Of a stretch of 56,327 bases of DNA, positions 9,835 to 56,327 are shown in pieces. The notes below the pieces were generated by a model that saw only the letters and a program-made list of their open reading frames with translations, searched no databases and was not told the DNA's origin. Position numbers and translations under genes: made by a program. Source of the DNA: an uncultured Candidatus Saccharibacteria bacterium (GTDB lineage Bacteria > Patescibacteriota > Minisyncoccia > Phycocordibacterales > UBA6899); assembly GCA_964469335.1 (NCBI GenBank), contig CAYXYK010000005.1, positions 1 to 56,327 on the forward strand, given 5' to 3'. The number at the start of each line of letters is the position of its first letter. The stretch's first letter is position 1.

Positions 9835-10604
9835 ACCCATCACAAATGTGGACAAGCTACTACACCATCGTACGTAAAGAAGTCGTGCGACTCTTTCGTA
9901 TCTGGTCACAGACCTTTCTCCCGCCGGTGATCACCACCTCCCTCTACTTTCTGATCTTCGGGAAGTTTATCGGAAGCCAGATCGAGCCGATAGGGGATGT
10001 CACCTACATGCAGTTCATCGTCCCCGGTCTGGTGATGATGTCGGTGATCATGCAGTCATTCATGAACTCGGCGTTCACGTTCTACATGGCGAAGTTCCAG
10101 AAGACCCTTGAAGAGGTCGCCGTGTCGCCTACGCCGTATCTTATTGTGATACTCGGACATGTATCTGCTGCGGTCATCCGCGGAATGATCACCGCAGGGA
10201 TCATCCTCGGTGTTGCGCTGTTCTTCACTCCGATCCACGTCCACTCGTATCTCCTTACTGTCGTGTTCATCTTCCTTTCCGCGCTGCTGTTCGCCCTTGC
10301 TGGGCTCATCAATGGCGTGTTCGCCAACTCGTTCGATACCGTACAGATCTTCCCGACCTTCGTACTCACTCCGCTGACGTATCTTGGTGGCGTCTTCTAT
10401 TCGGTGCACCTCCTCCCGCCTATTTGGCAAACGATCTCCTACGCTAACCCGATCGTCTATATGATCAATGGCTTCCGGTACGGCCTCCTCGGTGTCAGCG
10501 ACACCAGTGTTTGGACCTCGTTCTCCGTATTGGTGGCTTTGGTGTTCGTGATGGTGTTTGCGAATTGGTATGTGTTCAAAACTGGCCGCGGCCTTAGGGC
10601 ATAA
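9831..10604 (+). CDS. ABC-2 type permease (YadH-like)
   Basis: RIWSQT.LPPVIT..LYF.IFG, YMQFIVPGL and LTPLTYLGGVFYS motifs; overlaps the ATPase stop. Confidence 0.93.
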   Translation: MNPSQMWTSYYTIVRKEVVRLFRIWSQTFLPPVITTSLYFLIFGKFIGSQIEPIGDVTYMQFIVPGLVMMSVIMQSFMNSAFTFYMAKFQKTLEEVAVSPTPYLIVILGHVSAAVIRGMITAGIILGVALFFTPIHVHSYLLTVVFIFLSALLFALAGLINGVFANSFDTVQIFPTFVLTPLTYLGGVFYSVHLLPPIWQTISYANPIVYMINGFRYGLLGVSDTSVWTSFSVLVALVFVMVFANWYVFKTGRGLRA

Positions 10605-10780
10605 TTCAACTTGAGCGACCTGCTCGTCATTCCTTCGGCAAGTCGAGTCACCATAGATGACTATGGCTTCTCGACATTACCTCAGTCCATGACTTCGCAT
10701 TTCTTCTCAATTTGAATCATGCCGTAATTGCAAGCGATATGAATCTCGCATTAGAAGATTCGCAGGTGTAGAATTATTCC

Positions 10781-11194: not shown

Positions 11195-11229
11195 GGCCCG
11201 TCACCACGAGATCGACGGGCCTTTTTTTT
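11195..11229 (+). terminator. Intrinsic terminator
   Basis: GGCCCGTC...GACGGGCC followed by T8. Confidence 0.8.
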
Positions 11230-11230
11230 A

Positions 11231-11322
11231 CCAATTTTGCCCACCGCACAGAGTGTCGGTGGCAGCAAAATTGAGTATTTCCTGAATCGTCATGAAGGGA
11301 CGATTCAGGAAGCTCCGACTTT
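11231..11322. repeat. Double-hairpin repeat, family B copy 1
   Basis: CCAATTTTGCCCACC...GGTGGCAGCAAAATTGAG then TTCCTGAATCGTC...GACGATTCAGGAA-GCTCC. Confidence 0.85.
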
Positions 11323-11570
11323 TAAGTATCTCGGCGAAAAATAGAGGACTTTCAAAATTTAGCGAAGCAACTTGAGTCTTTTACTTAGGACACATTGGTT
11401 CGCGAGTGTCATCTCGTAACGTCACTTGTTGGTCTCTCTGTCACCATTGTGTCGTAATGCTTTATCCACAGAAATACTCTTGTCGTAGAAAAATAACACG
11501 ATACTATTGTATATGAATCCTGTGGGTTCTTAGTAGCCGGTACCGTCAATGGTCCCGGCTTCTGTTTTTC

Positions 11571-11740
11571 CCAATTTTGCCCACCGCGCAAAGCGTCGGC
11601 GGCTGCAAAATTGAGGATGTCTTAAATCGCCATGTCGAGGCGATTTAAGACCCCCCCAGATTTTTCTCATTGCGCAAAGCGCAATGGTGAAAAATTGAGG
11701 ACTTCCGAAATTGCTATTGCAGAGCAATTTCGGAAGCTCA
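11571..11740. repeat. Double-hairpin repeat, family B copies 2 and 3 in tandem
   Basis: Units at 11571 and ~11658, each with a CAATTTT..AAAATTGAGG hairpin plus a second hairpin. Confidence 0.85.
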
Positions 11741-12566: not shown

Positions 12567-12602
12567 GAAATACGGAAAGTTGTACACAGATTGTCCACGT
12601 TC

Positions 12603-12689
12603 CCAATTTTGCCCACCACGCAAAGCGATGGTGGCTGCAAAATTGAGGACTTCTGAAATCGTCACGAGAAGACGATTTCAGAAGCTCCA
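12603..12689. repeat. Double-hairpin repeat, family B copy 4
   Basis: CCAATTTTGCCCACC..GGTGGCTGCAAAATTGAGGAC then TTCTGAAATCGTC..GACGATTTCAGAA-GCTCC. Confidence 0.85.
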
Positions 12690-12785
12690 AGTATCCACAT
12701 CTTATCCACGTAAAAAATAGGAGCAGGAGGTACAGGTTGTTACAATTATGACAAGCAAACGTTACCGCGTTGCGCGATTCTTTCC

Positions 12786-14789
12786 ATGAGTGACCAAGTG
12801 AGGAAAATCACCATCAATCTGCGTTCGGCTGTGAAAAAACACCCCGAAGCTGCTCCTGTGCACCATGAAGTAAAAGCGCCTCAACATCCTCCTCACGCTG
12901 AGGAGGAGAAAGTCCTCCCCGTGAAAAAAGCGGACAAGCCGCACGTGCGCGTACTCACTGCCCGTCATGCCGAAGAGAAGTCGATCCCGCTCGAAGTGGC
13001 TAAGACGCATCAGACCGCCGCGTCTCCCGTGGTACCCGTCACCCAGCATGCTGAGGCGTTGGTCCCATCAAAAATGGTGGTACCGAAGAAACCGACCCAG
13101 CTTGAGGGCGTCTCAATCGGAGCACTCTCGATCGGCTATTTTTGTATGGAAATGGGACTCGAGAGCGATGTCCCGACCTATGCGGGCGGCCTCGGCATCC
13201 TTGCTGGTGACATGATGAAAAGCTGCGCCGATCTCGACGTCCCCGTCGTCGGAGTCACCCTCTTGTACCGCAAGGGCTATTTCAAACAACGATTCGACCA
13301 CAGCGGCTGGCAGTTCGAAGAAGATGAGTTTTGGGATCCGCGAGAGCATCTGATCCCGCTCGCAAAGGAAGTCGTCGTCGAACTTGAAGGCCGAAGGGTC
13401 CACGTGCGCGCATGGATGTACAAACTCTCCGGAGCGCGAGGGAGAGTGAATCCGATTCTCTTCCTCGATACCGATATCGAAGGCAATAGCGACGACGACC
13501 GTCATCTCACTGACCGGCTCTATACCGGTGACTCGCGCTATCGACTGCTGCAGGAGGCGATCCTCGGCATCGCCGGAGTCCGGATGCTCATCGCTCTTGG
13601 TGCGACGAATATCCAGAAGTTCCACATGAACGAAGGGCATTCGGCGCTACTCACCATTGAACTCTATCGCCAGTATGCTTCCTGCGCTGAGCCGATCGAA
13701 GAGGTCCGCCGTCGTACGGTGTTCACCACCCATACGCCGGTCGCCGCAGGGCACGACATCTTCGGGCAAGACCTCGCACTCTCGGTTCTGGGTGTGCACT
13801 TCGTTCCGTCCGCTATCGAAAGTATCGTCTTCCGGAGTGGGGTCCTGCATATGACCGAACTTGCGATGCATTTCGCGGGATTCATCAACGGAGTCGCGAA
13901 ACGTCACGGAGAAGTGACTCGTCAGCTTTTCCCGGGCTACTCGATCGAATCCATCACCAACGGTGTCTATGCGGCAGGTTGGGTCGGCCCGGGCATGGCA
14001 CGCCTCTACGATCATTACCTTCCCGGCTGGAAGACCGATCCGTATTCACTTCGCTATGCGCTTTCCATTCCTACCGAAGATCTCTGGCAGGGGCACATGG
14101 ATGACAAGCGTGCGCTCATCAAGTACGTCAACGAGACGCACAATGCAGAGATGGACCCCGACGTCTTCACCATCGGTTTCGCTCGTCGTGCGACCGAGTA
14201 CAAGCGCGGCAACATGTTGTTCGCTGACGTCGAACGACTCGCGCGCATTGCAGAGAAGTCGAAGGGAATACAGATCATCTATGCCGGCAAGGCACACCCT
14301 GCAGACAACAACGGCAAACTGCTCATCCAGGAGATCATGCGCAACATGGAGCGTCTCGGTAGTAAGGTACGGTGCATCTATCTCACCAACTACGACATGA
14401 AGATGGCGAAGCGGCTGGTCGCCGGTGTCGACCTGTGGCTCAACACTCCGACGAGGCCGCAGGAAGCATCAGGAACATCAGGGATGAAGGCAGCATGTAA
14501 CGGCGTGCCACAATTCTCCATCCTCGATGGTTGGTGGATCGAAGGACACATCGAGGGAGTGACCGGCTATTCGATCGGTGCGCATCCGGAAGAAGGTGAG
14601 CGCCCGAATGCCAACTACGAGGATATCGAGGACATGTACCGCAAGCTCGAATATGTCATCCTTCCGCGTTTCGAGAACGAGCATGATCGTTGGGTCAAGA
14701 TGATGCGACAGGCGATCGCGGTGAACGGGTCGTTCTTCAATACTCATCGCATGGTCGAACAGTACGTCCTCGGGGCATATTTCAAATGA
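12786..14789 (+). CDS. glgP: Alpha-glucan (glycogen/maltodextrin) phosphorylase, GT35
   Basis: YFCMEMG, YAGGLGILAGD, HMNEGH, FTTHTPV, ITNGV, GFARRATEYKR and EASGTSGMKA (PLP lysine) motifs; ~115-aa low-complexity N-terminal extension, start uncertain. Confidence 0.95.
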   Translation: MSDQVRKITINLRSAVKKHPEAAPVHHEVKAPQHPPHAEEEKVLPVKKADKPHVRVLTARHAEEKSIPLEVAKTHQTAASPVVPVTQHAEALVPSKMVVPKKPTQLEGVSIGALSIGYFCMEMGLESDVPTYAGGLGILAGDMMKSCADLDVPVVGVTLLYRKGYFKQRFDHSGWQFEEDEFWDPREHLIPLAKEVVVELEGRRVHVRAWMYKLSGARGRVNPILFLDTDIEGNSDDDRHLTDRLYTGDSRYRLLQEAILGIAGVRMLIALGATNIQKFHMNEGHSALLTIELYRQYASCAEPIEEVRRRTVFTTHTPVAAGHDIFGQDLALSVLGVHFVPSAIESIVFRSGVLHMTELAMHFAGFINGVAKRHGEVTRQLFPGYSIESITNGVYAAGWVGPGMARLYDHYLPGWKTDPYSLRYALSIPTEDLWQGHMDDKRALIKYVNETHNAEMDPDVFTIGFARRATEYKRGNMLFADVERLARIAEKSKGIQIIYAGKAHPADNNGKLLIQEIMRNMERLGSKVRCIYLTNYDMKMAKRLVAGVDLWLNTPTRPQEASGTSGMKAACNGVPQFSILDGWWIEGHIEGVTGYSIGAHPEEGERPNANYEDIEDMYRKLEYVILPRFENEHDRWVKMMRQAIAVNGSFFNTHRMVEQYVLGAYFK

Positions 14790-14901
14790 TTTTGGGTCAT
14801 AGCATTGTTGCGTGCGTCACGAGTCGGCTCAATGTGCAGTCAGCACATCTCACCGACATCGTTCCTGCGCGCCTCGCTCTGACCTCAAAATAATTTGAAA
14901 T
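14779..14901. repeat. Long fold-back hairpin whose outer stem includes the glgP stop codon
   Basis: ATTTCAAATGATTTTGGGTCA pairs with TGACCTCAAAATAATTTGAAAT; inner stems GTCGG/CCGAC and ATGTGC/GCACAT. Confidence 0.8.
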
Positions 14902-14967
14902 AATATGTAAGTTTGCACTCGACGTCATTCCTCAGAATTTCAATAAAATATTTGCTATACTATATAT

Positions 14968-18883: not shown

Positions 18884-21190
18884 ATGTCGAGCGCATCCAC
18901 ATCGAGAGCTGCCAAGGCGGTTGTCGTAAAGGCGAAAGCCGGTTCAGTATTAAAGGAGGTTCGTAAGCGCGACGGTTCAGTCGCCCCGTTCGACAAGGAA
19001 CATATCAAGAGCGCAGTCCTCCGTGCGATGCTCGCATCAGGCGAAGGAGGGGAGAAGGACGCAGATGTCGTCACTCACGCTGTCGTCAGTGCGCTTGAGA
19101 AGATCGTGAAGGGTCGCAAGGGCTATATCCCGAGCGTCGAAGAGATCCAGGACACCGCAGAAGCGGAACTCATCTACAAGAATTTCGCAAAGACCGCGAA
19201 GGGTTACATCATCTATCGCGAAGAGCACAAGAAGATCCGCGAAGTCACCGGCATCGTCCCAGAGGCGATCAAGGAGCTCGCACGTGAGTCGAAGAAATAT
19301 TTCCGCAATTCACTCGCGGAGTTCGTCTACTACCGCTCGTACTCACGCTGGATCGATCACGAACAGCGCCGCGAGACCTGGATCGAGACCGTCGACAGAT
19401 ACATGAACTTCATGCGCGAGAATCTCGACAAGAAGCTCACCGAGAAGGAGTACGACGAAGTGCGCGAGGCGATCCTTCGCCACGACGTGATGCCATCGAT
19501 GCGCCTGATGTGGGGTGCAGGCCCGGCAGCAAGGAAGACCAACGTCGTCGCGTACAACTGCTCGTTCATCGCTCCGTCGAAGCTCCGCGATTTCGGCGAG
19601 ATCATGTATCTCTCGATGTGCGGTACCGGCGTCGGCTACTCGGTCGAGTCACTCACCGTGCAGCAGCTTCCGCAGATCAAGAAGCAGACCGGCAAGGCGC
19701 ACAAAGTGCATGTGGTCGGCGACTCCAAGGAAGGTTGGGCAGATGCCTACGTCACTGGACTTGAGGCATGGTTTAACGGCGAGGACATCAAATTCGACTA
19801 CTCACAGCTTAGGCCAGCTGGTGCGCGCCTCATGACCATGGGCGGCAAATCTTCAGGCCCGCAGCCACTTGTGAATCTCATCGACTTCACTCGCGAGAAG
19901 GTATTCAAGCGCCAGGGTCGCCGCCTCTCGAACCTCGATGTCCACGATATCGTCTGTAAAATAGGTGAAGTCGTAGTGTCCGGCGGCGTAAGGCGTAGCG
20001 CACTCATCTCACTCTCAGACCTCGACGATTACGAGATGCGCCATGCCAAGGACGGACAGTTCTACGTCACCGAGCCACAGCGCATGATGGCGAACAACTC
20101 GGCCGTCTACACCCATCGCCCGTCGACTGCAGAGTTCATGGACGAATGGATAAGTTTGATGAAGTCAGGCTCAGGCGAGCGCGGTATCTTCAATCGTGGT
20201 TCACTCGAGAAGCAGATCCCGGAGCGCCGCAAGAAGACCCTGATGAAGGGGATCGACACCTGTGGTACCAACCCGTGCGGTGAGATCATCTTGAAGAGTA
20301 AGCAGTTCTGCAACCTCACCGAAGTCGTCATTCGCGCAGAGGACACCAAGCACACCCTCTTGAAGAAGATGCGCCTCGCAGCCATCCTCGGTACCTACCA
20401 GTCGACCCTCACCAACTTCAAGTATCTTTCGGCAGAGTGGAAGAAGAACTGTGAGGAAGAGCGCCTCCTTGGTGTCTCGATCACCGGCCAGTGGGACAAT
20501 CCGGAGCTCGTCCACGACCCGAAAGTCCTCGCAGACCTTCGCGACGAAGCAGTCGCCGTAAACAAGACCTATGCAAAGCGCTTCGGCATCAACCAGTCTG
20601 CAGCCGTCACCGCGGTCAAGCCTTCAGGCACTGTCTCGCAGCTCGTCGACGCATCAAGCGGTATGCACCCTCGCCACGCTCCGTACTACATCCGCCGCAT
20701 CCGCATCAGCGCCTCGGACGCACTCTTCAAGATGCTCCGCGATCAGGGCATTCCGTTCGCACCCGAAGTCGGACAGAGCGCAGAGAACGCCGTCACTTAC
20801 GTGATCGACTTCCCGGTCAAGTCTCCGAACCAAGCGGTCGTGAAGGATGACATCACCGCACTCGAGCAGCTCGTCCACTGGAAGCTCATCAAAGAGAATT
20901 ACACCGAGCACAATCCGTCCGTGACGATTTCGGTAGGGGAGAACGAATGGCTCGCCGTCGCATCATGGCTGTATGAGAACTGGGACATGGTGGGAGGACT
21001 TTCATTCCTGCCTCGCTCGGAGCACGTCTACCAGCTCGCGCCGTATGAGGAGATCACCAAGGAGAAGTATGAGGATCTCGCAAAAAGATGGGAGGATATC
21101 GATTTCTCGAAGATCGTGAGTTACGAGAAGCTGGATGAGACGCAGGGGGCGAAAGAGCTAGCCTGTGTCTCCGGCGTCTGCGAAATCTAG
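18884..21190 (+). CDS. nrdJ: Class II (adenosylcobalamin-dependent, monomeric RTPR-type) ribonucleotide reductase with N-terminal ATP cone
   Basis: ATP cone VRKRDG...FD..I, PSMRLMW.AG, GGVRRSALISLS, TNPCGEI, CNLTEV, AVKPSGTVSQL and C-terminal CVSGVCEI. Confidence 0.93.
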   Translation: MSSASTSRAAKAVVVKAKAGSVLKEVRKRDGSVAPFDKEHIKSAVLRAMLASGEGGEKDADVVTHAVVSALEKIVKGRKGYIPSVEEIQDTAEAELIYKNFAKTAKGYIIYREEHKKIREVTGIVPEAIKELARESKKYFRNSLAEFVYYRSYSRWIDHEQRRETWIETVDRYMNFMRENLDKKLTEKEYDEVREAILRHDVMPSMRLMWGAGPAARKTNVVAYNCSFIAPSKLRDFGEIMYLSMCGTGVGYSVESLTVQQLPQIKKQTGKAHKVHVVGDSKEGWADAYVTGLEAWFNGEDIKFDYSQLRPAGARLMTMGGKSSGPQPLVNLIDFTREKVFKRQGRRLSNLDVHDIVCKIGEVVVSGGVRRSALISLSDLDDYEMRHAKDGQFYVTEPQRMMANNSAVYTHRPSTAEFMDEWISLMKSGSGERGIFNRGSLEKQIPERRKKTLMKGIDTCGTNPCGEIILKSKQFCNLTEVVIRAEDTKHTLLKKMRLAAILGTYQSTLTNFKYLSAEWKKNCEEERLLGVSITGQWDNPELVHDPKVLADLRDEAVAVNKTYAKRFGINQSAAVTAVKPSGTVSQLVDASSGMHPRHAPYYIRRIRISASDALFKMLRDQGIPFAPEVGQSAENAVTYVIDFPVKSPNQAVVKDDITALEQLVHWKLIKENYTEHNPSVTISVGENEWLAVASWLYENWDMVGGLSFLPRSEHVYQLAPYEEITKEKYEDLAKRWEDIDFSKIVSYEKLDETQGAKELACVSGVCEI

Positions 21191-21311
21191 CCCATTTTCA
21201 GCGCATTACTTTGTCGCAATAAAGCGGCGACCCCATCACGGTACGAGAGTACCGCTCAGGGGTACGCCGCTTTTTGCTTCGCGTACTGCATCTGAAAATG
21301 GGCTAGATTTC
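21182..21311. repeat. Hairpin element A flanked by a perfect 20-bp inverted repeat that includes the nrdJ stop
   Basis: GAAATCTAGCCCATTTTCAG (21182-21201) and CTGAAAATGGGCTAGATTTC (21292-21311); core shared with 44400-44488. Confidence 0.88.
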
Positions 21312-21345: not shown

Positions 21346-21684
21346 ATGTTATTTCAAGTAAAGACAGGAGCTTTCGAAGTCATTGATTCGGGAGTTCTTC
21401 ATGTGATTGAAGATGAGGTAACCATATTGAGATTAGGTGACGTTAGTTTTTCACTTATTTTTGAAAAAAATGATGATGGCAAACAAGCAGTAGCATTTGA
21501 GGCTTCTGATAAAAAAAATGCCAAACTCATTCTCACAAATGTGCAAGGCCCTTTAGGTTATGGAACGACAAAGCCATTTCAGGTTGGAGACAGAGACGGA
21601 AAAGGATTGTTTTTGACTTTTGTAACTAGATCCCTAAACGATACTTATCTTCGTACATTTGAATATACACTTTATACAAAATGA
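21346..21684 (+). CDS. Hypothetical protein, DUF6864-like
   Basis: EVIDSG, LGYGTTKPFQVG and FEYTLY resemble my recollection of this family; AT-rich codon usage. Confidence 0.6.
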   Translation: MLFQVKTGAFEVIDSGVLHVIEDEVTILRLGDVSFSLIFEKNDDGKQAVAFEASDKKNAKLILTNVQGPLGYGTTKPFQVGDRDGKGLFLTFVTRSLNDTYLRTFEYTLYTK

Positions 21685-21938
21685 GCAACGTTGAATTACA
21701 AGGAGATTCAAATCCGCCAGCCGGCTCGTCGATACCGGAGAAACAAGAAGATACTCGCGGGTGGTTAGCAAAGGGCGTTTTTATTCTCCTTTCATTATTT
21801 GTTTTTGCAATTTTTCTCGCCGTCGTATTTTTAGACATAACACAAGAGAAATTGACGATATTGCTGTCAGTATTTTCAGGAATTACAGGAATTCTTGGTT
21901 TTGTAATGGGTTTCTATTTTGGCCAAAATCAAAAATGA
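21681..21938 (+). CDS. Hypothetical two-TM protein
   Basis: ATGA overlap with the upstream gene; two TMs; GILGFVMGFYFG. Confidence 0.7.
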   Translation: MSNVELQGDSNPPAGSSIPEKQEDTRGWLAKGVFILLSLFVFAIFLAVVFLDITQEKLTILLSVFSGITGILGFVMGFYFGQNQK

Positions 21939-22052
21939 TCCAAGGAAATGGGCTGCCGTCTGCGAGGACGAGGAATCGGGGTCAGGCACCAATTAAATCG
22001 TAAAATGTATGGTGGGGTTTCGGGTTTGAGAGAGAGGGTATAGAGTGAATTT

Positions 22053-22346
22053 ATGGATACTGTCATCGAAATGTATTTCAAAATTCTGATATCAGTCATA
22101 ATGCTCTGCGGAGGGGTGTATGTGCTCACACACGTAAAATCACTCGCTCAACGCTTGCAGAATTCTTATATACAAAAAGCTGAGGAGTCACAAAAAGCCA
22201 CAGGGGTACTTGCCGCACTCAATCGCAGTAACCCCGAGAAGTGGAAGACACCTTACATGACGTTCATTTTTAAATTCATGGTGGCATTTTTCGGAGTGTG
22301 GTTGCTGCTCGGCATCGTTGCTGTTTTCGGTCCTATAGAACTCTGA
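22053..22346 (+). CDS. Hypothetical two-TM protein
   Basis: Hydrophobic N- and C-terminal helices. Confidence 0.6.
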   Translation: MDTVIEMYFKILISVIMLCGGVYVLTHVKSLAQRLQNSYIQKAEESQKATGVLAALNRSNPEKWKTPYMTFIFKFMVAFFGVWLLLGIVAVFGPIEL

Positions 22347-22399
22347 GTAGGCTTTGAGTCTGCCTTCACGGGGGCAGTGAGTGGGGTTATAGTTAATCC

Positions 22400-22816
22400 A
22401 TGCTTGAGCGTTCAATGGCGGCACTTATGTTGCTACTCTTGGGAATTGCAGCGGCAAACTCCCAAGGTTTTTTTCGCTATGTTCCTATTGCGGTCATGGT
22501 GCCGATTGCGTTCTGGTTCTTTGGTAAGTTATTTGAGTACCGCTTCGATACCGATAAAATAACGATAATATTCTGCACCATACTCCCGATATGGTCCATT
22601 CGGTACTCGAATATCGTGAAAGCGAATATGGTTGACCATATGCTTTGGGCAAGACCAATGTTCTCAACAACTTTCCGAAATACGTACGTCGGCCCTTATA
22701 TCGAACTTGAATTGGAACATGTTTTCTATAAGACAATTTTTATTGACCCTCCTGATAGAAAGAAATTCTTAAGTGAACTTGATCTGCACTCGCGAGCGAG
22801 TGGCAAAGTAAAATAA
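22400..22816 (+). CDS. Membrane-anchored bacterial PH-domain protein
   Basis: Two TMs, then YRFDTDKITI...IRYSNI...TIFIDPPDRKKFL..L. Confidence 0.6.
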   Translation: MLERSMAALMLLLLGIAAANSQGFFRYVPIAVMVPIAFWFFGKLFEYRFDTDKITIIFCTILPIWSIRYSNIVKANMVDHMLWARPMFSTTFRNTYVGPYIELELEHVFYKTIFIDPPDRKKFLSELDLHSRASGKVK

Positions 22817-22884
22817 ATGGAAATGCGGGCGGGGGGCATGAGTTAAGAAAAATGGAGGGAGAATTTTGGGGAATAAAAAACCAA

Positions 22885-22980
22885 GCCACAAGTCACTAGG
22901 CATATGCGGAGCAGAGCTCCTTATCTGCCAAGTGCTCCCGGCCCTGTCTCGTCGTCACAGGTGACATGACTCCGACTCGT
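22885..22980 (-). repeat. GGTCGC...GTGACC family copy not linked to a tRNA
   Basis: Minus strand GAGTCGG...GAGCACTTGG-CAGATAAGGAGCTCTGCTCCGCATATG-CCTAGTGACTTGTGGC aligns with the 48203 copy. Confidence 0.7.
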
Positions 22981-23027
22981 TTTCGTTCGGCAAAAGCAAA
23001 GCAGTTTGCTTTTGCAAATACTGAAAC

Positions 23028-42582: not shown

Positions 42583-44385
42583 ATGGACCGGAAACACATA
42601 AGGAATTTCAGTATTATCGCCCATATTGACCACGGAAAATCGACCCTCGCGGATCGGCTTCTTGAGATCACCCACACCATCGAAAAGCGCAAGATGCAGG
42701 AGCAAGTACTCGACTCGATGGAGCTCGAGCGCGAGCGCGGTATCACTATTAAGATGCAGCCGGTACGGATGAGCTACAAGAAAGGGGATGAAGAGTACCT
42801 GATCAACCTGATCGACACCCCGGGGCATATCGATTTTTCCTACGAAGTCTCTCGTGCGCTGAACGCGGTCGAAGGAACACTGCTCTTGGTGGATTCGACT
42901 CAGGGCGTGCAGGCACAGACGCTCACCACGCTCCAGATGGCGCGAGAGCATGGCCTCACCATCATCCCAGTACTCTCGAAGATCGATTCACCGCTCGCGC
43001 GCGTGGACGAAGTGCGGGACGAGATCGTCTCGCTCCTCAAAGTGGATCCGAGCGAAGTGATGCTTGTCTCCGGACGTACCGGCGAAGGAGTCCCAGAGTT
43101 GCTTGACGAGATAGTGAGGCGCATTCCTCCACCATCTGAGGAATTTGCCGGCACCAAGAGTGCCCGCGCGCTTATTTTCGATTTTTCATACTCCAACCAC
43201 CGTGGTGTCATCCTTTATGTGCGCGTGCTCGACGGAAGTGTGAAGAAAGGAAGTGAACTCATCTTCCTCGGCGCAAAAGAGAAGTTCTTTGCGGTCGAGG
43301 TGGGATATTTCGCCCCCGCACAGACCGAGAAGAACGAACTCATGGCAGGAGAGATCGGATACATCGTCTCCGGGATCAAACGTCCGGGAGTCGCGGGTGT
43401 TGGTGATACGGTCACCGTGTTCAAAGAGCAGCTACCAGCTCTTCCCGGCTATGCAAAGCCAAGGCCGGTGGTATGGGCTTCGGTCTTTCCGGAGAGTCAG
43501 GATGATCTTTCGATGTTGCGCCAAGCACTTGAGCGATTGCAGCTTTCGGATTCATCGCTGACGTTCGAAGAGGAGGCATCCGGAAATCTCGGCCGCGGAT
43601 TCCGTTGCGGTTTTCTCGGTATGCTCCATCTTGAGATCATCACTGAACGATTGAAACGCGAATTCGATCTCGAGCTCGTCGTCACCACTCCGACTATCAC
43701 GTATGAAATTACCCACAAACAGACCAAGGAGGTCGACATCATCTACTCTCCCGCGCTCTTTCCCGATGATGCGTTCATCGCATCAGTCCGTGAGCCATGG
43801 ATCGATGGAGAGATCATTCTCCCGCCCGATTACGTCGGTCCGGTCAATCAGCTCCTGTACGAACATGAAGCTGAGTCCGGCAATACCGACATCTTCGGAG
43901 AGAATCGTTTCAAGGTGGAGTTCAAGATGCCGCTACGAGAACTCATGCGTGGATTCTTCGATAAGCTGAAATCGGTTTCATCCGGTTTCGCGAGTCTCTC
44001 GTATGAGCTCGGCGGGTTTCGAGACGCCGAAGTAACCCGTATGGACATTCTCGTGAATGATGAGCCGGTGTCCGCATTCTCTCGCGTCGTATCCAAACGC
44101 CGCGCACAGGAGGAAGGGGAGGCAGCAGTGAAGAAACTCGCCAAGGCGATGCCTCGTCAGATGATCGTCGTGAAGATGCAGGCAAAAGTGATGGGCAAGA
44201 TCATCTCCTCAGAACGCCTCTCTGCACTCAAAAAGGACGTCACTGGATATCTCTATGGAGGAGACATCACCCGCAAAATGAAGCTGCGCGAGAAGCAAAA
44301 GAAAGGAAAGAAGAAGATGCAGGAGATGGGGAATGTGAATATTCCGCAGGATGTGTTTGTCGCCATGATCCGCCCCGATGAATAA
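42583..44385 (+). CDS. lepA: Translation elongation factor 4 (LepA)
   Basis: IRNFSIIAHIDHGKSTLADRLL, ERERGITIK, DTPGHIDF, GFRCGFLGMLH and K.KLREKQK.GKKKM motifs. Confidence 0.98.
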   Translation: MDRKHIRNFSIIAHIDHGKSTLADRLLEITHTIEKRKMQEQVLDSMELERERGITIKMQPVRMSYKKGDEEYLINLIDTPGHIDFSYEVSRALNAVEGTLLLVDSTQGVQAQTLTTLQMAREHGLTIIPVLSKIDSPLARVDEVRDEIVSLLKVDPSEVMLVSGRTGEGVPELLDEIVRRIPPPSEEFAGTKSARALIFDFSYSNHRGVILYVRVLDGSVKKGSELIFLGAKEKFFAVEVGYFAPAQTEKNELMAGEIGYIVSGIKRPGVAGVGDTVTVFKEQLPALPGYAKPRPVVWASVFPESQDDLSMLRQALERLQLSDSSLTFEEEASGNLGRGFRCGFLGMLHLEIITERLKREFDLELVVTTPTITYEITHKQTKEVDIIYSPALFPDDAFIASVREPWIDGEIILPPDYVGPVNQLLYEHEAESGNTDIFGENRFKVEFKMPLRELMRGFFDKLKSVSSGFASLSYELGGFRDAEVTRMDILVNDEPVSAFSRVVSKRRAQEEGEAAVKKLAKAMPRQMIVVKMQAKVMGKIISSERLSALKKDVTGYLYGGDITRKMKLREKQKKGKKKMQEMGNVNIPQDVFVAMIRPDE

Positions 44386-44506
44386 CACAAGATTCTGACG
44401 CATTGCTTTGTCGCAATACGGCGGCGACCCCATCACAATACAGGAGTACTGCTCAGGGGTACGCCGCCTTTTGCTTCGCGCACTGCATTCATAATCTTTT
44501 GTTATT
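44381..44506. repeat. Hairpin element A, second copy, flanked by a 14-bp inverted repeat that includes the lepA stop
   Basis: AATAACACAAGATT (44381-44394) and AATCTTTTGTTATT (44493-44506); core similar to 21202-21291. Confidence 0.85.
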
Positions 44507-45645: not shown

Positions 45646-45719
45646 GCGAGATTAGTTTAGTGGCAGAACTAGTGCTTCCCAAGCATTGGGCGGGAGTTCG
45701 ATTCTCCCATCTCGCACCA
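45646..45719 (+). tRNA. tRNA-Gly(CCC)
   Basis: GCGAGAT/ATCTCGC acceptor, AGTGC-TTCCCAA-GCATT, GTTCGATTC, encoded CCA. Confidence 0.97.
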
Positions 45720-45850
45720 AAACAAAAACCGGCAGGGAAGCCGTTTTTTGTTTTGGTGCGAGAAGCAAAGTGCCTGCGCACTTTGCGTGGGAGAATCGAA
45801 GCCCTTCTCCGTTATTTGTGAAGAATTATTATTCTGAGCAAATCGGAAAG

Positions 45851-48338: not shown

Positions 48339-48413
48339 GCCCCTATAGTTCAATGGATAGAACAGCTCCGTCCTAAGGAGTAGATGTAGGTTCGATTCCC
48401 GCTGGGGGCACCA
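48339..48413 (+). tRNA. tRNA-Arg(CCT)
   Basis: GCCCCTA/TGGGGGC acceptor, GCTCC-GTCCTAA-GGAGT anticodon arm, encoded CCA; G32 and one T-stem mismatch. Confidence 0.9.
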
Positions 48414-48843
48414 TATGAAATAACAGCCTTTTGGCTGTTATTTCATATGGTGCCCCAAACAAGCAGACTACTCTGCTTCGTGCGGGAATCGAAAGGGTTT
48501 TCATTATCGAGTCATCGAGATTGAAAACCACCCGCGGCGGTTGCCGAGATTCCCGCTGGGGGCACAAGTCAGACACAAAACCTTCCCTGCGGAAGGTTTT
48601 GTGCTACTTGTGAGCCGCAGCGATGTTTCGCCAGCAGGCGAAACCGCGAGGTGGGGTCGCGGAAATCCCAGCGCGACGGCGATGGGATTATCCGTGACCC
48701 ATACTCCCAATGCCATACAATCTCTTTCGCTGTAGGTACGTTTTCCAGAGAGTCTCTTCGCGGAAATCCCAACGCGACGGTGAGAAAGTTATCCGTGACC
48801 AAGGTGACCCACATACACCACCTGCGGCGGTAGCCGAGATTCC
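48414..48843. repeat. Nested repeat cluster downstream of tRNA-Arg
   Basis: Inverted tRNA 3' copy (48448-48493), direct copy GATTCCCGCTGGGGGCAC (48548-48565), repeat pairs 48658/48759 and 48527/48817. Confidence 0.85.
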
Positions 48844-50330: not shown

Positions 50331-50403
50331 TTCAACCCTTTGTAAACTTTCAGTTTTCATCCTCGGCACCAAAAGAAAAAATCCCATATGGGATTTTTTC
50401 TTT

Positions 50404-50479
50404 TGGTGCCGAGGACCAGGGTTGAACTGGTGACCCCTCGCTCTTCAGGCGAATGCTCTACCAACTGAGCTACCTCGGC
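50404..50479 (-). tRNA. tRNA-Phe(GAA)
   Basis: GCCGAGG acceptor, TCGC-CTGAAGA-GCGA anticodon arm, GTTCAACC T-loop, encoded CCA. Confidence 0.97.
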
Positions 50480-54423: not shown

Positions 54424-56327
54424 ATGAAAACCAACATCTTCACTTCGGTCAATAAAAAAGGTTTCGGTCACACAGTACTCGGGGTATTCCTGATGCTTTC
54501 ACTCGTGCTCCAGAACGCGGCATATGTACAATATGCTTTCGCAAACACCACCGAGGAAAGCTCGTCAGCAGTAGAGACGAGCATTGTCGTGGCGTCGAAC
54601 GATACTTCTACTGAAGAGCATGTGTCGCTTCAGACTGAAGAAAAGCATGACTCTGATGAGCACTCGAACGAGGGTGAGCGCGGAGAGAAGGAGGCGGTGC
54701 GACATGATGATGCCGACAGCGAAGAGCGTGGGGAAAAGCATGATGAAGAGCATGCTTCATCCCTCGGCGAGCATCATGATAGCGATGAAGACAACAACAA
54801 CGACGATGAGAACCATCACGTCGGAACGATCAAGGACATCTTCCACGGCATGAACGGTGCAAAGCCTGCCGTCACCATCGTTGCGCAAAAGGTCGTCTGT
54901 TCAGACGAATCGAAGCTTCCGAATTGGGGGCTCGGCGGTCCGGATATCACCGCACAAACTGCGACAGATTATGTCGCGTCGCACCCTGGCTGCGTCCTCA
55001 CTCCTGACTGGAAGTTCCAGTGGGGATTCTCCGGAGTGAAGGATCTCGGTGGCAGCTTCATCGGTGAAGCAGACGGATCGAAGGGAATCGGCTCGAACAC
55101 CGGTAGTGGACTTTCGGACTGGAAGACATTCGGTCCGAGTGATGCTAGCGGGGTTGCGACTGTGAAGGTATACGACCTTCAGGGTTCACCGAAGATATGG
55201 GTGCGCGAAGTCATGAAGGACGGCTATGTCCCGTTCAGCTATGACCCTGCACATCCGGTCAACGACAATCCGGTAAGCGCGGAGATGTACTGCAACTCTG
55301 ACGTACTCAATTATGATAACTATGACTTCATTGCGAATCCTTCACTTGGAGCAACCTACCACTGTGTTGCCTTCAATGCTGCGAAATCGGTAGTCCCTCC
55401 TCCTGTTGTGGTCAGCGCAAGCTGTCCTTTCACCGCGGCGACCGGTACCTATGTCGTCAATTATGGTACTGCTCGCAGCATCATCTCCAGCGGCAGTCAT
55501 GCTGATGCCAATGTCACCAAAGACATCAATATCCCAGTAGGTACCTATGAGGTATCGCTCTTCTCATATGATACTTCGGCGACTCGAAGCACTGAAACCC
55601 AGCCGAATGAGAAGTGGTACCTCCGGATTCATAATGGAACGACGCTGATCTCGACCTCAAGTGCGATCGGAGATCTTGCGGATAATGTCACCGAAGCATC
55701 GCGCACACAGTATGTCGGTGATGTCGTACTCAGTACCCCCGCCACGATGGTCATGGCGAAACACGCTGCTTGGCCTGACACCTCTTCGACGAACGCGCTC
55801 TATCCCGTATGTGCACAGCTCAAACTGAAGACCACTCCGGTCAACCAGGCTCCGGTTATCACTGTTGTCGGTGAGAACCCGCTCACGATCGTTCAGAATA
55901 CTGTCTTCACTGACCCAGGAGCGACCGCATTCGATCTCGAAGACGGAACCATCACTCCTGTAGCGACAGGCACTGTAAACTCATCAGTCATCGGTTCATA
56001 CGTCATTACGTACACCGCCACTGACTCGAAGGGCGCCACAGCGACCCCGAAGACGCGCACCGTGAACGTCGTGCCGCAGGGAGGCGGTTGCACCTCGAAC
56101 TGCACTGCGACTAACACCGCTCCGGTCATTACCGTCATTGGTCTGAACCCGCTCACGATCGTTCAGAATACTGTCTTCATTGACCCAGGAGCGACCGCAT
56201 TCGATCTCGAAGACGGAACCATCACTCCTGTCGCAACTGGGACCGTGAATACTGCTGCAACCGGCACATATATCATTACGTACACCGCCACTGACTCGAA
56301 GGGCGCCACAGCGACCCCGAAGACGCG
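54424..56327 (+). CDS. Large secreted surface protein with DUF5011/HYR-like Ig repeats (3' end runs off the window)
   Basis: Frame open from ATG 54424 to the window end; N-terminal TM/signal; His/Asp/Glu-rich linker; APVITVVGENP...F.DPGATAFD.EDG...Y.ITYTATDSKG repeats; missing from the ORF track because no stop is present. Confidence 0.88.
   Translation, partial: MKTNIFTSVNKKGFGHTVLGVFLMLSLVLQNAAYVQYAFANTTEESSSAVETSIVVASNDTSTEEHVSLQTEEKHDSDEHSNEGERGEKEAVRHDDADSEERGEKHDEEHASSLGEHHDSDEDNNNDDENHHVGTIKDIFHGMNGAKPAVTIVAQKVVCSDESKLPNWGLGGPDITAQTATDYVASHPGCVLTPDWKFQWGFSGVKDLGGSFIGEADGSKGIGSNTGSGLSDWKTFGPSDASGVATVKVYDLQGSPKIWVREVMKDGYVPFSYDPAHPVNDNPVSAEMYCNSDVLNYDNYDFIANPSLGATYHCVAFNAAKSVVPPPVVVSASCPFTAATGTYVVNYGTARSIISSGSHADANVTKDINIPVGTYEVSLFSYDTSATRSTETQPNEKWYLRIHNGTTLISTSSAIGDLADNVTEASRTQYVGDVVLSTPATMVMAKHAAWPDTSSTNALYPVCAQLKLKTTPVNQAPVITVVGENPLTIVQNTVFTDPGATAFDLEDGTITPVATGTVNSSVIGSYVITYTATDSKGATATPKTRTVNVVPQGGGCTSNCTATNTAPVITVIGLNPLTIVQNTVFIDPGATAFDLEDGTITPVATGTVNTAATGTYIITYTATDSKGATATPKT
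55849..56327 (+). repeat. Intragenic tandem repeat, 270-nt period
   Basis: Units start at 55849 and 56119 with long identical stretches. Confidence 0.9.

Follow-up and report, generated by a model that had tools for sequence, protein, structure and literature searches.

What is the mirrored element that closes the nrdJ gene of an uncultured Candidatus Saccharibacteria bacterium, and how did it come to carry an inverted copy of the end of that gene? The locus lies in contig CAYXYK010000005.1 of assembly GCA_964469335.1, of which positions 1 to 56,327 of the forward strand were analyzed (hereafter the window, 56,327 nt). An initial annotation, made from the sequence alone, had noted that a core downstream of nrdJ is enclosed by a perfect 20-bp inverted arm, had termed it Element A and had interpreted it as a non-autonomous mobile element or structured RNA marking an insertion hotspot. 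We favour, at a probability of about 0.5 for the reading as a whole, the view that Element A belongs to a large and old family of imperfect-palindrome repeats in Paceibacteria-type bacteria of the candidate phyla radiation (CPR). It would be a palindromic repeat that is copied and then retained by selection in the 3' untranslated region (UTR) of genes, with a basal stem produced by fold-back (template-switch) DNA synthesis. The family is apparently undescribed; a full-text search of the published literature returned no description of such repeats in CPR bacteria.

Structure of the element downstream of nrdJ

The nrdJ gene, encoding a class II ribonucleotide reductase (RNR), occupies positions 18884..21190 of the plus strand, as judged from the list of open reading frames (ORFs) and translation, with the start placed at the first ATG of the ORF. 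Its product of 768 amino acids, for which an exact match is on record, carries ATP-cone and RNR domains and ends ...ACVSGVCEI before a TAG stop codon. The inverted arms are exact over 20 nt, as described initially, and take in the last nrdJ codons and the TAG. The left arm, GAAATCTAGCCCATTTTCAG (21182..21201, plus strand), consists of GAA-ATC-TAG, the last two nrdJ codons and the stop, followed by 11 nt of 3' UTR; the right arm, CTGAAAATGGGCTAGATTTC (21292..21311, plus strand), is its exact reverse complement and includes the mirrored stop (CTA) and mirrored codons (GATTTC). The 90 nt between the arms are occupied by the core (CGCATTAC...CTGCAT; 21202..21291, plus strand), which is the copied unit as judged from matches to the family hidden Markov model and covariance model and from identity with the copy downstream of lepA. 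Within it, the apical stem-loop GGTAC-GAGA-GTACC (21240..21253, plus strand) shows the strongest conservation within the family when genomes are compared, and is bordered by the conserved unpaired stretches ATCAC and GCTCA. Five positions of the apical part (T56, A57, A66, C70 and T71) are nearly invariant in the alignment across genomes. The whole 130-nt element is predicted to fold as one rod-like hairpin of -83.4 kcal/mol, against -41.5 +/- 3.5 kcal/mol for shuffled sequences (z = -12).

A widespread family of diverged repeats

When the 1.28-Mb, eight-contig genome was searched by BLAST with the nrdJ core, two copies were returned, at nrdJ and lepA. This result is misleading; the family is recognizable by profile but not by BLAST. 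It was uncovered by a census of inverted repeats with spacers of about 90 nt, in which perfect pairs 87-93 nt apart were strikingly overrepresented and their spacers aligned mutually, and then by profile. An nhmmer profile built from 20 cores (cut-off E < 1e-3) detected 67 copies in the genome that contains the window, and a covariance model of core plus arms (R1, built from 46 copies) detected 81. With 67-81 copies and no U-tract in the family, Element A does not correspond to one of only two copies of an ancient, fixed terminator. The element was present in all 22 species genomes of the genus, at 6-86 copies each, and in 34 of the 111 families sampled from the order (about 30%). Copies from distant families share common ends (CG.ACT.CTTCGTTGC ... 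GCGCCTCG.AT.GCAT) and a common apex, the core ends CG... and ...CAT being conserved, and copies within one genome are strongly diverged and not near-identical. Searching the window with Rfam covariance models gave no matches at the gathering score, and a permissive search produced a chance hit (E = 2.1).

Two variants were observed in congeners. At L240 (G017:C45:5700-9200, positions 2378-2759) and L006 (G010:C42) two or three copies stand in direct tandem, the second copy lacking a clear arm of its own. At nrdJ in L014 and L018, and at ftsE and rpoC of G021 (L125, L143), a second and shorter hairpin family, AAGGTCGGNCC ... GGNCCGACCTT, lies beyond the stop codon; its outer arms likewise reach the stop.

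Placement and orientation relative to genes

Gene contexts were taken from ORFs and not from curated annotation. Of the 57 copies whose arm is 10 nt or longer, 51 come after a co-oriented ORF of at least 100 codons, and in these 51 the core begins 3-34 nt past the stop codon, with modes at 17, 14 and 9 nt. Positions between stop and core were paired with the right arm in 91% of cases, compared with 24-38% in register-shift controls. In 18 copies all three bases of the stop codon were paired and in 21 two of the three were, whereas the controls gave at most 1 of 51. Within contigs the strand of the element changes with that of the genes, for example + + - + + + - - - on contig C2, and its orientation therefore follows transcription and not the replication arm. 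Ordinary perfect hairpins after ORFs start 0-30 nt past the stop with no peak in this range, indicating that post-stop anchoring is specific to this repeat family; the idea that all hairpins of the genome begin at the stop codon was rejected on the same spread.

Most copies are located between ordinary housekeeping genes, and the next gene on the same strand usually starts 40-100 nt beyond the right arm. Canonical terminators are found downstream of the element in L021 and L027, and the family consensus has no U-tract. The element is presumably transcribed within the 3' UTR of the upstream gene, and its placement together with the terminators downstream in L021 and L027 suggests that it is generally not itself a terminator.

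Origin and length of the arms

Mirrored flanks such as those initially noted at nrdJ are found genome-wide, with almost every copy carrying a locus-specific arm of about 17-18 nt. In the unbiased set of 67 copies from the genome under study arm length had its mode at 16-19 nt, and two of the 67 reached at least 20 nt. Among 59 copies from 20 congeners, a sample biased towards high-scoring copies, the most frequent lengths were 18 nt (22 copies), 17 nt (12), 16 nt (10) and 19 nt (5). This length is independent of the position of the stop codon: where the core lies 9 nt from the stop the arm extends 9 nt into coding sequence, where it lies 17-18 nt away the arm begins at the stop, and at 22-30 nt it begins past the stop. 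The nrdJ codons and TAG are included in the arm because a copy of about 18 nt was made close to the stop codon, and on this comparison the stop codon in the arm is not a sign of stop-codon recognition.

The side from which the arm was copied is indicated by gene ends at sites without the element. The ...CEI* end of NrdJ is conserved in relatives that carry the element and in dozens of CPR genomes that do not have it there, and GAR-ATH-TAR is kept at the nrdJ ends of the latter. Similarly, the ends of FtsE (...YIL*), PilB (...NIV*) and GlgP (...YFK*) are kept in congeners with empty sites, that of GlgP in G002. Where the element is present these native codons are mirrored in the right arm, as in ftsE (TACATTCTC-TAG-TTATTTG / CAAATAA-CTA-GAGAATGTA) and glgP (TATTTCAAA-TGA). 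Changes in the gene end are followed by the right arm: nrdJ ends ATC-TAG-C in our genome and ATT-TAA-T in L019, with all three differences mirrored, and ftsE has ATT in our genome and ATC in G002 and G012, each matched by its own right arm. These alignments show the left arm to be native sequence, of which the right arm is a copy in reverse complement.

The nrdJ and lepA copies have cores that are 89% identical and arms that are unrelated. The nrdJ-type subfamily is also found at nrdJ of L019, while at lepA G002 and G012 have an empty site and G008 a different occupant; the nrdJ copy hence looks older. By this comparison it is the core that was copied, and the lepA arm would have been made on the spot. 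The inner 6-7 nt of the arms are semi-conserved (ATTTNGG/CCNAAAT), with TTTNGG, T-rich and ending in G, usually just before the core. The outer 10-12 nt differ from locus to locus, with a weak recurring consensus, AAACTTTCA.

Most arm mismatches represent a G lost from the sense strand of the right arm. In six of the nine copies of our genome that follow TAA or TGA and have an arm reaching past the stop, a mismatch was observed exactly at the middle base of the stop (10594-10727 and 14778-14902 in the window; C3:150213, C3:113250, C1:368872 and C6:11938), so that the sense strand of the right arm has a TAA or TGA of its own. TAG copies were perfectly mirrored, and four comparable copies of relatives were perfect.

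Covariation and base composition of the hairpin

In the consensus rod, 86.9% of cells were paired, compared with 53.5% in shuffles and 35-43% in slid registers, and 562 double-sided changes were counted against 173 in shuffles. One-sided (G-U) states were almost absent, for which reason the complementarity looks like that of copied DNA. The core has a C-rich sense strand (32% C, 21% G) in which stop codons are scarce, with 68 observed and 122 +/- 8 in dinucleotide shuffles. Specific stem nucleotides are conserved, namely T-N-C/G-N-A and the RTAC apex.

Conservation, gain and loss of copies

Comparison of 16 sites among six congeners identified eight that are occupied in our genome only (adk-like, C1_329557, pilM, pilB, ftsW, glgP, C4_155261 and smc); at the smc site G002 retains a 5' remnant. 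At rpoC, ftsE and nrdJ several species have a copy, but its core often belongs to a different subfamily. Orthologous copies were compared with synonymous sites. A copy shared by G010 and G015 has 90% element identity and 34% synonymous-site identity, one shared by G013 and G008 has 96% and 48%, synonymous sites being saturated in both comparisons, and the nrdJ copy of our genome and that of L019 have 76% element identity and 46% identity at four-fold sites. The G010 and G015 copies have identical left arms and one private mismatch in each right arm, indicating that the arm is older than the split and has been kept since. These data point to purifying selection on the whole hairpin combined with occasional gain, loss and replacement. 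The mobile element or structured RNA of the initial annotation is supported to the extent that this is a repeat without genes, that its hairpin shows massive covariation and that it has been copied to new sites; for the last of these the evidence consists of the range in copy number, the many sites empty in five congeners and the likely derivation of the lepA core from an nrdJ-type core. An empty nrdJ site was not found in a metagenome search, and a search with degenerate nrdJ ends gave no relative closer than 85%.

Other copies and neighbouring features in the window

The window contains four copies (10594-10727, 14778-14902, 21182-21311 and 44381-44506), and exactly four covariance-model matches were obtained, at 10600-10721, 14780-14900, 21186-21307 and 44383-44504. 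The second copy described here (44381..44506, plus strand; 86.7 bits) follows lepA (42583..44385, plus strand), an ORF whose product carries LepA domains and is found, as an exact match, on 14 public contigs. Its left arm, core and right arm occupy 44381-44398, 44399-44488 and 44489-44506, respectively, with the core 13 nt past the lepA stop codon. Recurrence of the nrdJ core at this position, as reported initially, was confirmed with 80 of 90 positions identical. The arms AATAACACAAGATTCTGA / TCATAATCTTTTGTTATT are an inverted flank (AATAAC.../...GTTATT) that includes the lepA TAA; they are imperfect, with 16 of 18 positions paired, and the copy has a predicted fold of -56.6 kcal/mol (z = -4.4). 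A third copy, of another subfamily (10594..10727, plus strand; 88.4 bits), lies after an ABC-transporter permease-like gene and has 22-nt arms with three mismatches around a core at 10616-10705. The fourth (14778..14902, plus strand; 83.4 bits) lies after a glycogen-phosphorylase-like gene, and its 17-nt arm enters the coding sequence by 9 nt (TATTTCAAA-TGA) ahead of a core at 14795-14885. Both the nrdJ and lepA copies are fixed in public contigs of the same population (at least five samples) except for one single-nucleotide polymorphism in the apex. The variable base, at 44449, is C here and in one other sample; five other assemblies have T instead, by which an A-U pair of the lepA apical stem is restored.

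Downstream of the nrdJ copy, the AT-rich DNA noted in the initial annotation is present, with 38-47% GC at 21400-23000 compared with 55-60% in nrdJ. A block of small genes (21346-23000, 38-47% GC) begins 35 nt past the element. Its first gene encodes a DUF6864 protein (21346..21684, plus strand; Pfam match and composition) and is mentioned as context, not as part of the element; the remaining genes of the block are without a Pfam match. In each relative examined the region after nrdJ is a different one. The suggestion that the element marks an insertion hotspot did not hold, as three of 67 copies precede DNA of less than 45% GC compared with 6.4% of all 1-kb windows, and it was rejected on these counts.

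Other repeats were observed in the window. Three tRNA genes are each followed by a long perfect palindrome with arms of 19-28 nt (45710-45763, 48405-48456 and 50360-50415), the left arm of which takes in the 3' acceptor strand of the tRNA and the CCA. The pattern is repeated at further tRNA genes of the genome (e.g. GGGCACCATAAGAAAAAACCGCTT), and these palindromes look like terminator stems extended backwards into the tRNA. A different repeat of about 99 nt (TTTTTNCCAATTTTGCCCACC...) is present in three copies (11225-11323, 11565-11663 and 12597-12695) that are 73-77% identical and contain internal hairpins. A tandem repeat at 55833-56327, with a period of 270 nt and 225-nt copies 85% identical, ends at the window edge, and a run of N is next in the contig.

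Candidate partner genes and alternative explanations

A selfish origin would make the element the remnant of a single-strand DNA transposon of the REPIN or palindrome-associated transposable element (PATE) kind, its folded strand, probably the antisense, being moved in trans by a Y1 HUH transposase and its position and orientation at gene ends being due solely to the survival of such insertions. Y1 genes are present in 21 of the 22 genus genomes (1-12 each), the conserved stem nucleotides and the variation in copy number from 6 to 86 are in keeping with such an origin, TTTNGG stands before the core as a target motif would, and the antisense strand folds better. However, a search for the Y1 HUH domain (PF01797) gave no matches in our genome, which is 95.8% complete and carries 81 copies. 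Among 20 congener Y1 loci (+/-1.5 kb, searched with the covariance model) copies were found near one only, about 470 nt away, and no TnpB domain was detected in the 22 genomes. The orientation of the element follows genes and not the replication arm, and orthologous copies are conserved far beyond neutral sites. The flank is duplicated in inverted form, whereas HUH transposition, to our knowledge, makes no flank duplication. We consider this origin unlikely. The Y1 (IS200/RAYT-like) genes of the genus are of two kinds, with frames of about 146-159 and 220-240 amino acids (e.g. L243, G011:C23:17800-21200). Among other candidates, reverse transcriptase (RVT_1) was found in 11 of the 22 genomes with no relation to copy number, genomes with 54-64 copies having none, and the sole small GIY-YIG gene of our genome (82 amino acids, C4:26169-26417) has neither a copy nor an inverted repeat around it. 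At the level of gene content, then, no transposase, reverse transcriptase, TnpB or GIY-YIG partner appears to track the element. A direct duplication of the target (TA, TAA or YTAR) was dismissed, the flanks being inverted beyond any such site: at lepA, smc, ftsE and glgP they are reverse complements and direct-repeat flanks were not seen, with a hidden palindromic TA possible.

Common descent among transcription terminators, intrinsic or lacking a U-tract, could account for a family of similar hairpins at positions where terminators are located, the next same-strand gene mostly lying 40-100 nt on, and the nrdJ and lepA cores do contain a GC-rich stem followed by TTTTTGCTT. That U-tract is confined to these two cores and absent from the family consensus, L021 and L027 have canonical terminators downstream of the element, and a terminator needs no locus-specific 18-bp base reaching into coding sequence; the explanation is improbable. 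Quite improbable is an order of events in which the arms are older and the core was inserted into the tip of an existing gene-end palindrome or terminator, as IS1397 is into REP (repetitive extragenic palindromic) units. Several copies of our genome are readable as a stop-centred palindrome with a duplicated TAA or TGA, and long perfect palindromes exist at the tRNA 3' ends of this genome. Against this, orthologous empty sites in five congeners (ftsW, pilB, adk-like, pilM and smc) have no stop-codon palindrome, and pre-existing palindromes were rejected as a general explanation on this ground. The arms are AT-rich and without a U-tract, their length of about 18 nt is constant whatever the local sequence whereas the start of ordinary hairpins varies between 0 and 30 nt past the stop, and TAG copies are perfectly mirrored and not directly duplicated. 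The right arm may also be imagined as a guide, with the core as a scaffold and the arm of about 18 nt directing a nuclease or recombinase to an empty site (homing, OMEGA/TnpB-like), or the folded strand as an attC-like site. A conserved scaffold joined to a locus-specific, strictly Watson-Crick, sharp-edged stretch that is conserved with its target fits this idea, as does the better antisense fold, recalling the bottom strands of integron attC sites. Yet none of the 22 genomes has a TnpB/Cas12f-type gene, a partner protein was not identified, the element follows housekeeping genes and not cassettes, and in the transcript the guide would be tied up by pairing with the left arm; this proposal is highly improbable.

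Several observations also weigh against the copied, selectively retained hairpin that we favour. Arm mismatches show no wobble bias, with G-U-type and A-C-type mismatches numbering 7 and 23 in our genome and 11 and 20 in relatives; the lack of favour for wobble on the sense strand fits a working form at the level of DNA or antisense at least as well as a sense RNA. The antisense core is predicted to fold better (-37 kcal/mol compared with -29 kcal/mol for the sense strand), in 53 of 56 copies of our genome and 57 of 59 of relatives. This modelled difference could mean that the repeat works as antisense or single-stranded DNA or that G is disfavoured on the message, and cannot tell the two apart. 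Strong conservation of some copies is set against replacement of others at the same site, and no single model covers both so far. None of the empty sites found was similar enough in sequence to tell an added right arm from an overwriting one. Lastly, the sharp arm of about 18 nt points to a molecular ruler, and it is not obvious how simple replication slippage would provide one.

Comparison with known repeats

The family was compared with the generally known properties of REP/REPIN sequences, miniature inverted-repeat transposable elements (MITEs), Rickettsia palindromic elements and attC sites. Like the REP/REPIN-RAYT system, the REPIN concept reportedly being that of Bertels and Rainey, it is a high-copy imperfect palindrome of about 100 nt without genes, forming a long hairpin in intergenic DNA at gene ends and transcribed with the gene, and Y1 HUH genes exist in the genus. 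REP/REPIN sequences are many near-identical short palindromes with a conserved 5' tetranucleotide, whereas here copies are highly diverged, placement is strictly post-stop in one orientation with an arm of about 18 nt copied from the flank itself, our genome has no Y1 gene and the element does not flank the Y1 genes of congeners. The lack of a Y1 gene in our genome and of TnpB in the 22 genomes likewise sets it apart from the PATE of IS200/IS605, as does the inverted flank duplication. Hairpin-forming MITEs of 3' UTRs (ERIC/IRU, Correia/NEMIS and RUP) resemble it in size, absence of genes, long RNA hairpin, co-transcription and likely effect on mRNA fate. However, their terminal inverted repeats are common to all copies, whereas here the inner 6-7 nt of the arms are semi-conserved and the outer 10-12 nt locus-specific apart from a weak consensus, and they have a short direct target duplication (often TA) where here the flank is duplicated in inverted form; a parent insertion sequence was not seen.

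Rickettsia palindromic elements are also dispersed palindromic repeats of a reduced genome with no known transposase, and a stop-poor sense strand is a further likeness (here 68 compared with 122 +/- 8). They typically lie in frame inside genes, whereas Element A repeats were post-stop in 51 of the 57 copies with arms of at least 10 nt. Integron attC sites share a position at ORF 3' ends, co-orientation, structure conserved above sequence, conserved unpaired bases and a bottom strand that folds better. Unlike them, the repeats described here form no cassette arrays, have housekeeping genes in front and lack R'/R'' core sites; no attC boxes (GTTRRRY / RYYYAAC) bounding the element were seen by inspection, an integron integrase not having been searched for.

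Proposed origin and significance of the repeat

Template-switch, or quasipalindrome, mutations can create, repair and extend perfect stems (PMC8794818; see also PMC5941160 and PMC13100816). The signature of such events is present in the family as perfect reverse-complement copying of adjacent sequence, a sharp boundary and clustered compensatory changes, including one-step multi-base compensation without G-U intermediates. It is a mutational signature and not proof of the process, and the events described in the literature are sporadic, whereas here one of about 18 nt accompanies essentially every copy throughout the order. We know of no other described process than fold-back or template-switch synthesis that gives such products.

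In the mechanism that we favour, the copied unit would be the core of about 90 nt (CG...CAT), copies of which lie 6-27 nt past a stop codon in the direction of the gene. On or after its arrival about 17-18 nt of upstream DNA would be copied backwards onto the downstream side, the template being whatever is present there, whether 3' UTR, stop codon or, sometimes, last codons. Most likely the hairpin itself would prime the DNA synthesis, through fold-back or an intrastrand template switch, yielding a perfect Watson-Crick basal stem that differs at each locus. Copies, arms included, would afterwards be held under purifying selection, and this retention suggests that the complete hairpin is needed by the host or for the element's own persistence. 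The data establish the size, placement and orientation of the family, the native left and copied right arm, the constant arm length, and the conservation and turnover of copies; both the copying mechanism and sense RNA as the working form are what we infer from these patterns. By analogy with REP and ERIC-type repeats, our guess is that the hairpin might serve as an mRNA 3'-end module for protection or processing of the upstream message.

A bolder proposal, tentative and on balance doubtful, is that inverted and not direct duplication of a fixed stretch of about 18 nt of upstream flank marks the arrival of the element, through hairpin-primed copy-back integration without a dedicated transposase. 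The host would then keep the repeat as a gene-end signal read strictly by Watson-Crick pairing, possibly as single-stranded DNA or antisense, which would make it a new kind of bacterial repeat.

Although CPR genomes are very small, about 80 copies of one hairpin take up roughly 0.7% of this DNA, and some copies are better conserved than the essential genes upstream of them. For annotation, the family is a strong marker of true stop codons and gene orientation in Paceibacteria genomes, and also a trap for gene callers and assemblers. If the arms arise from fold-back copying, the family would represent a natural repeated experiment in the building of long perfect stems by template switching, and its repeats might have spread with no transposase involved. 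Should the hairpin be a gene-end signal, it would point to a hidden layer of mRNA 3'-end handling in an uncultured phylum.

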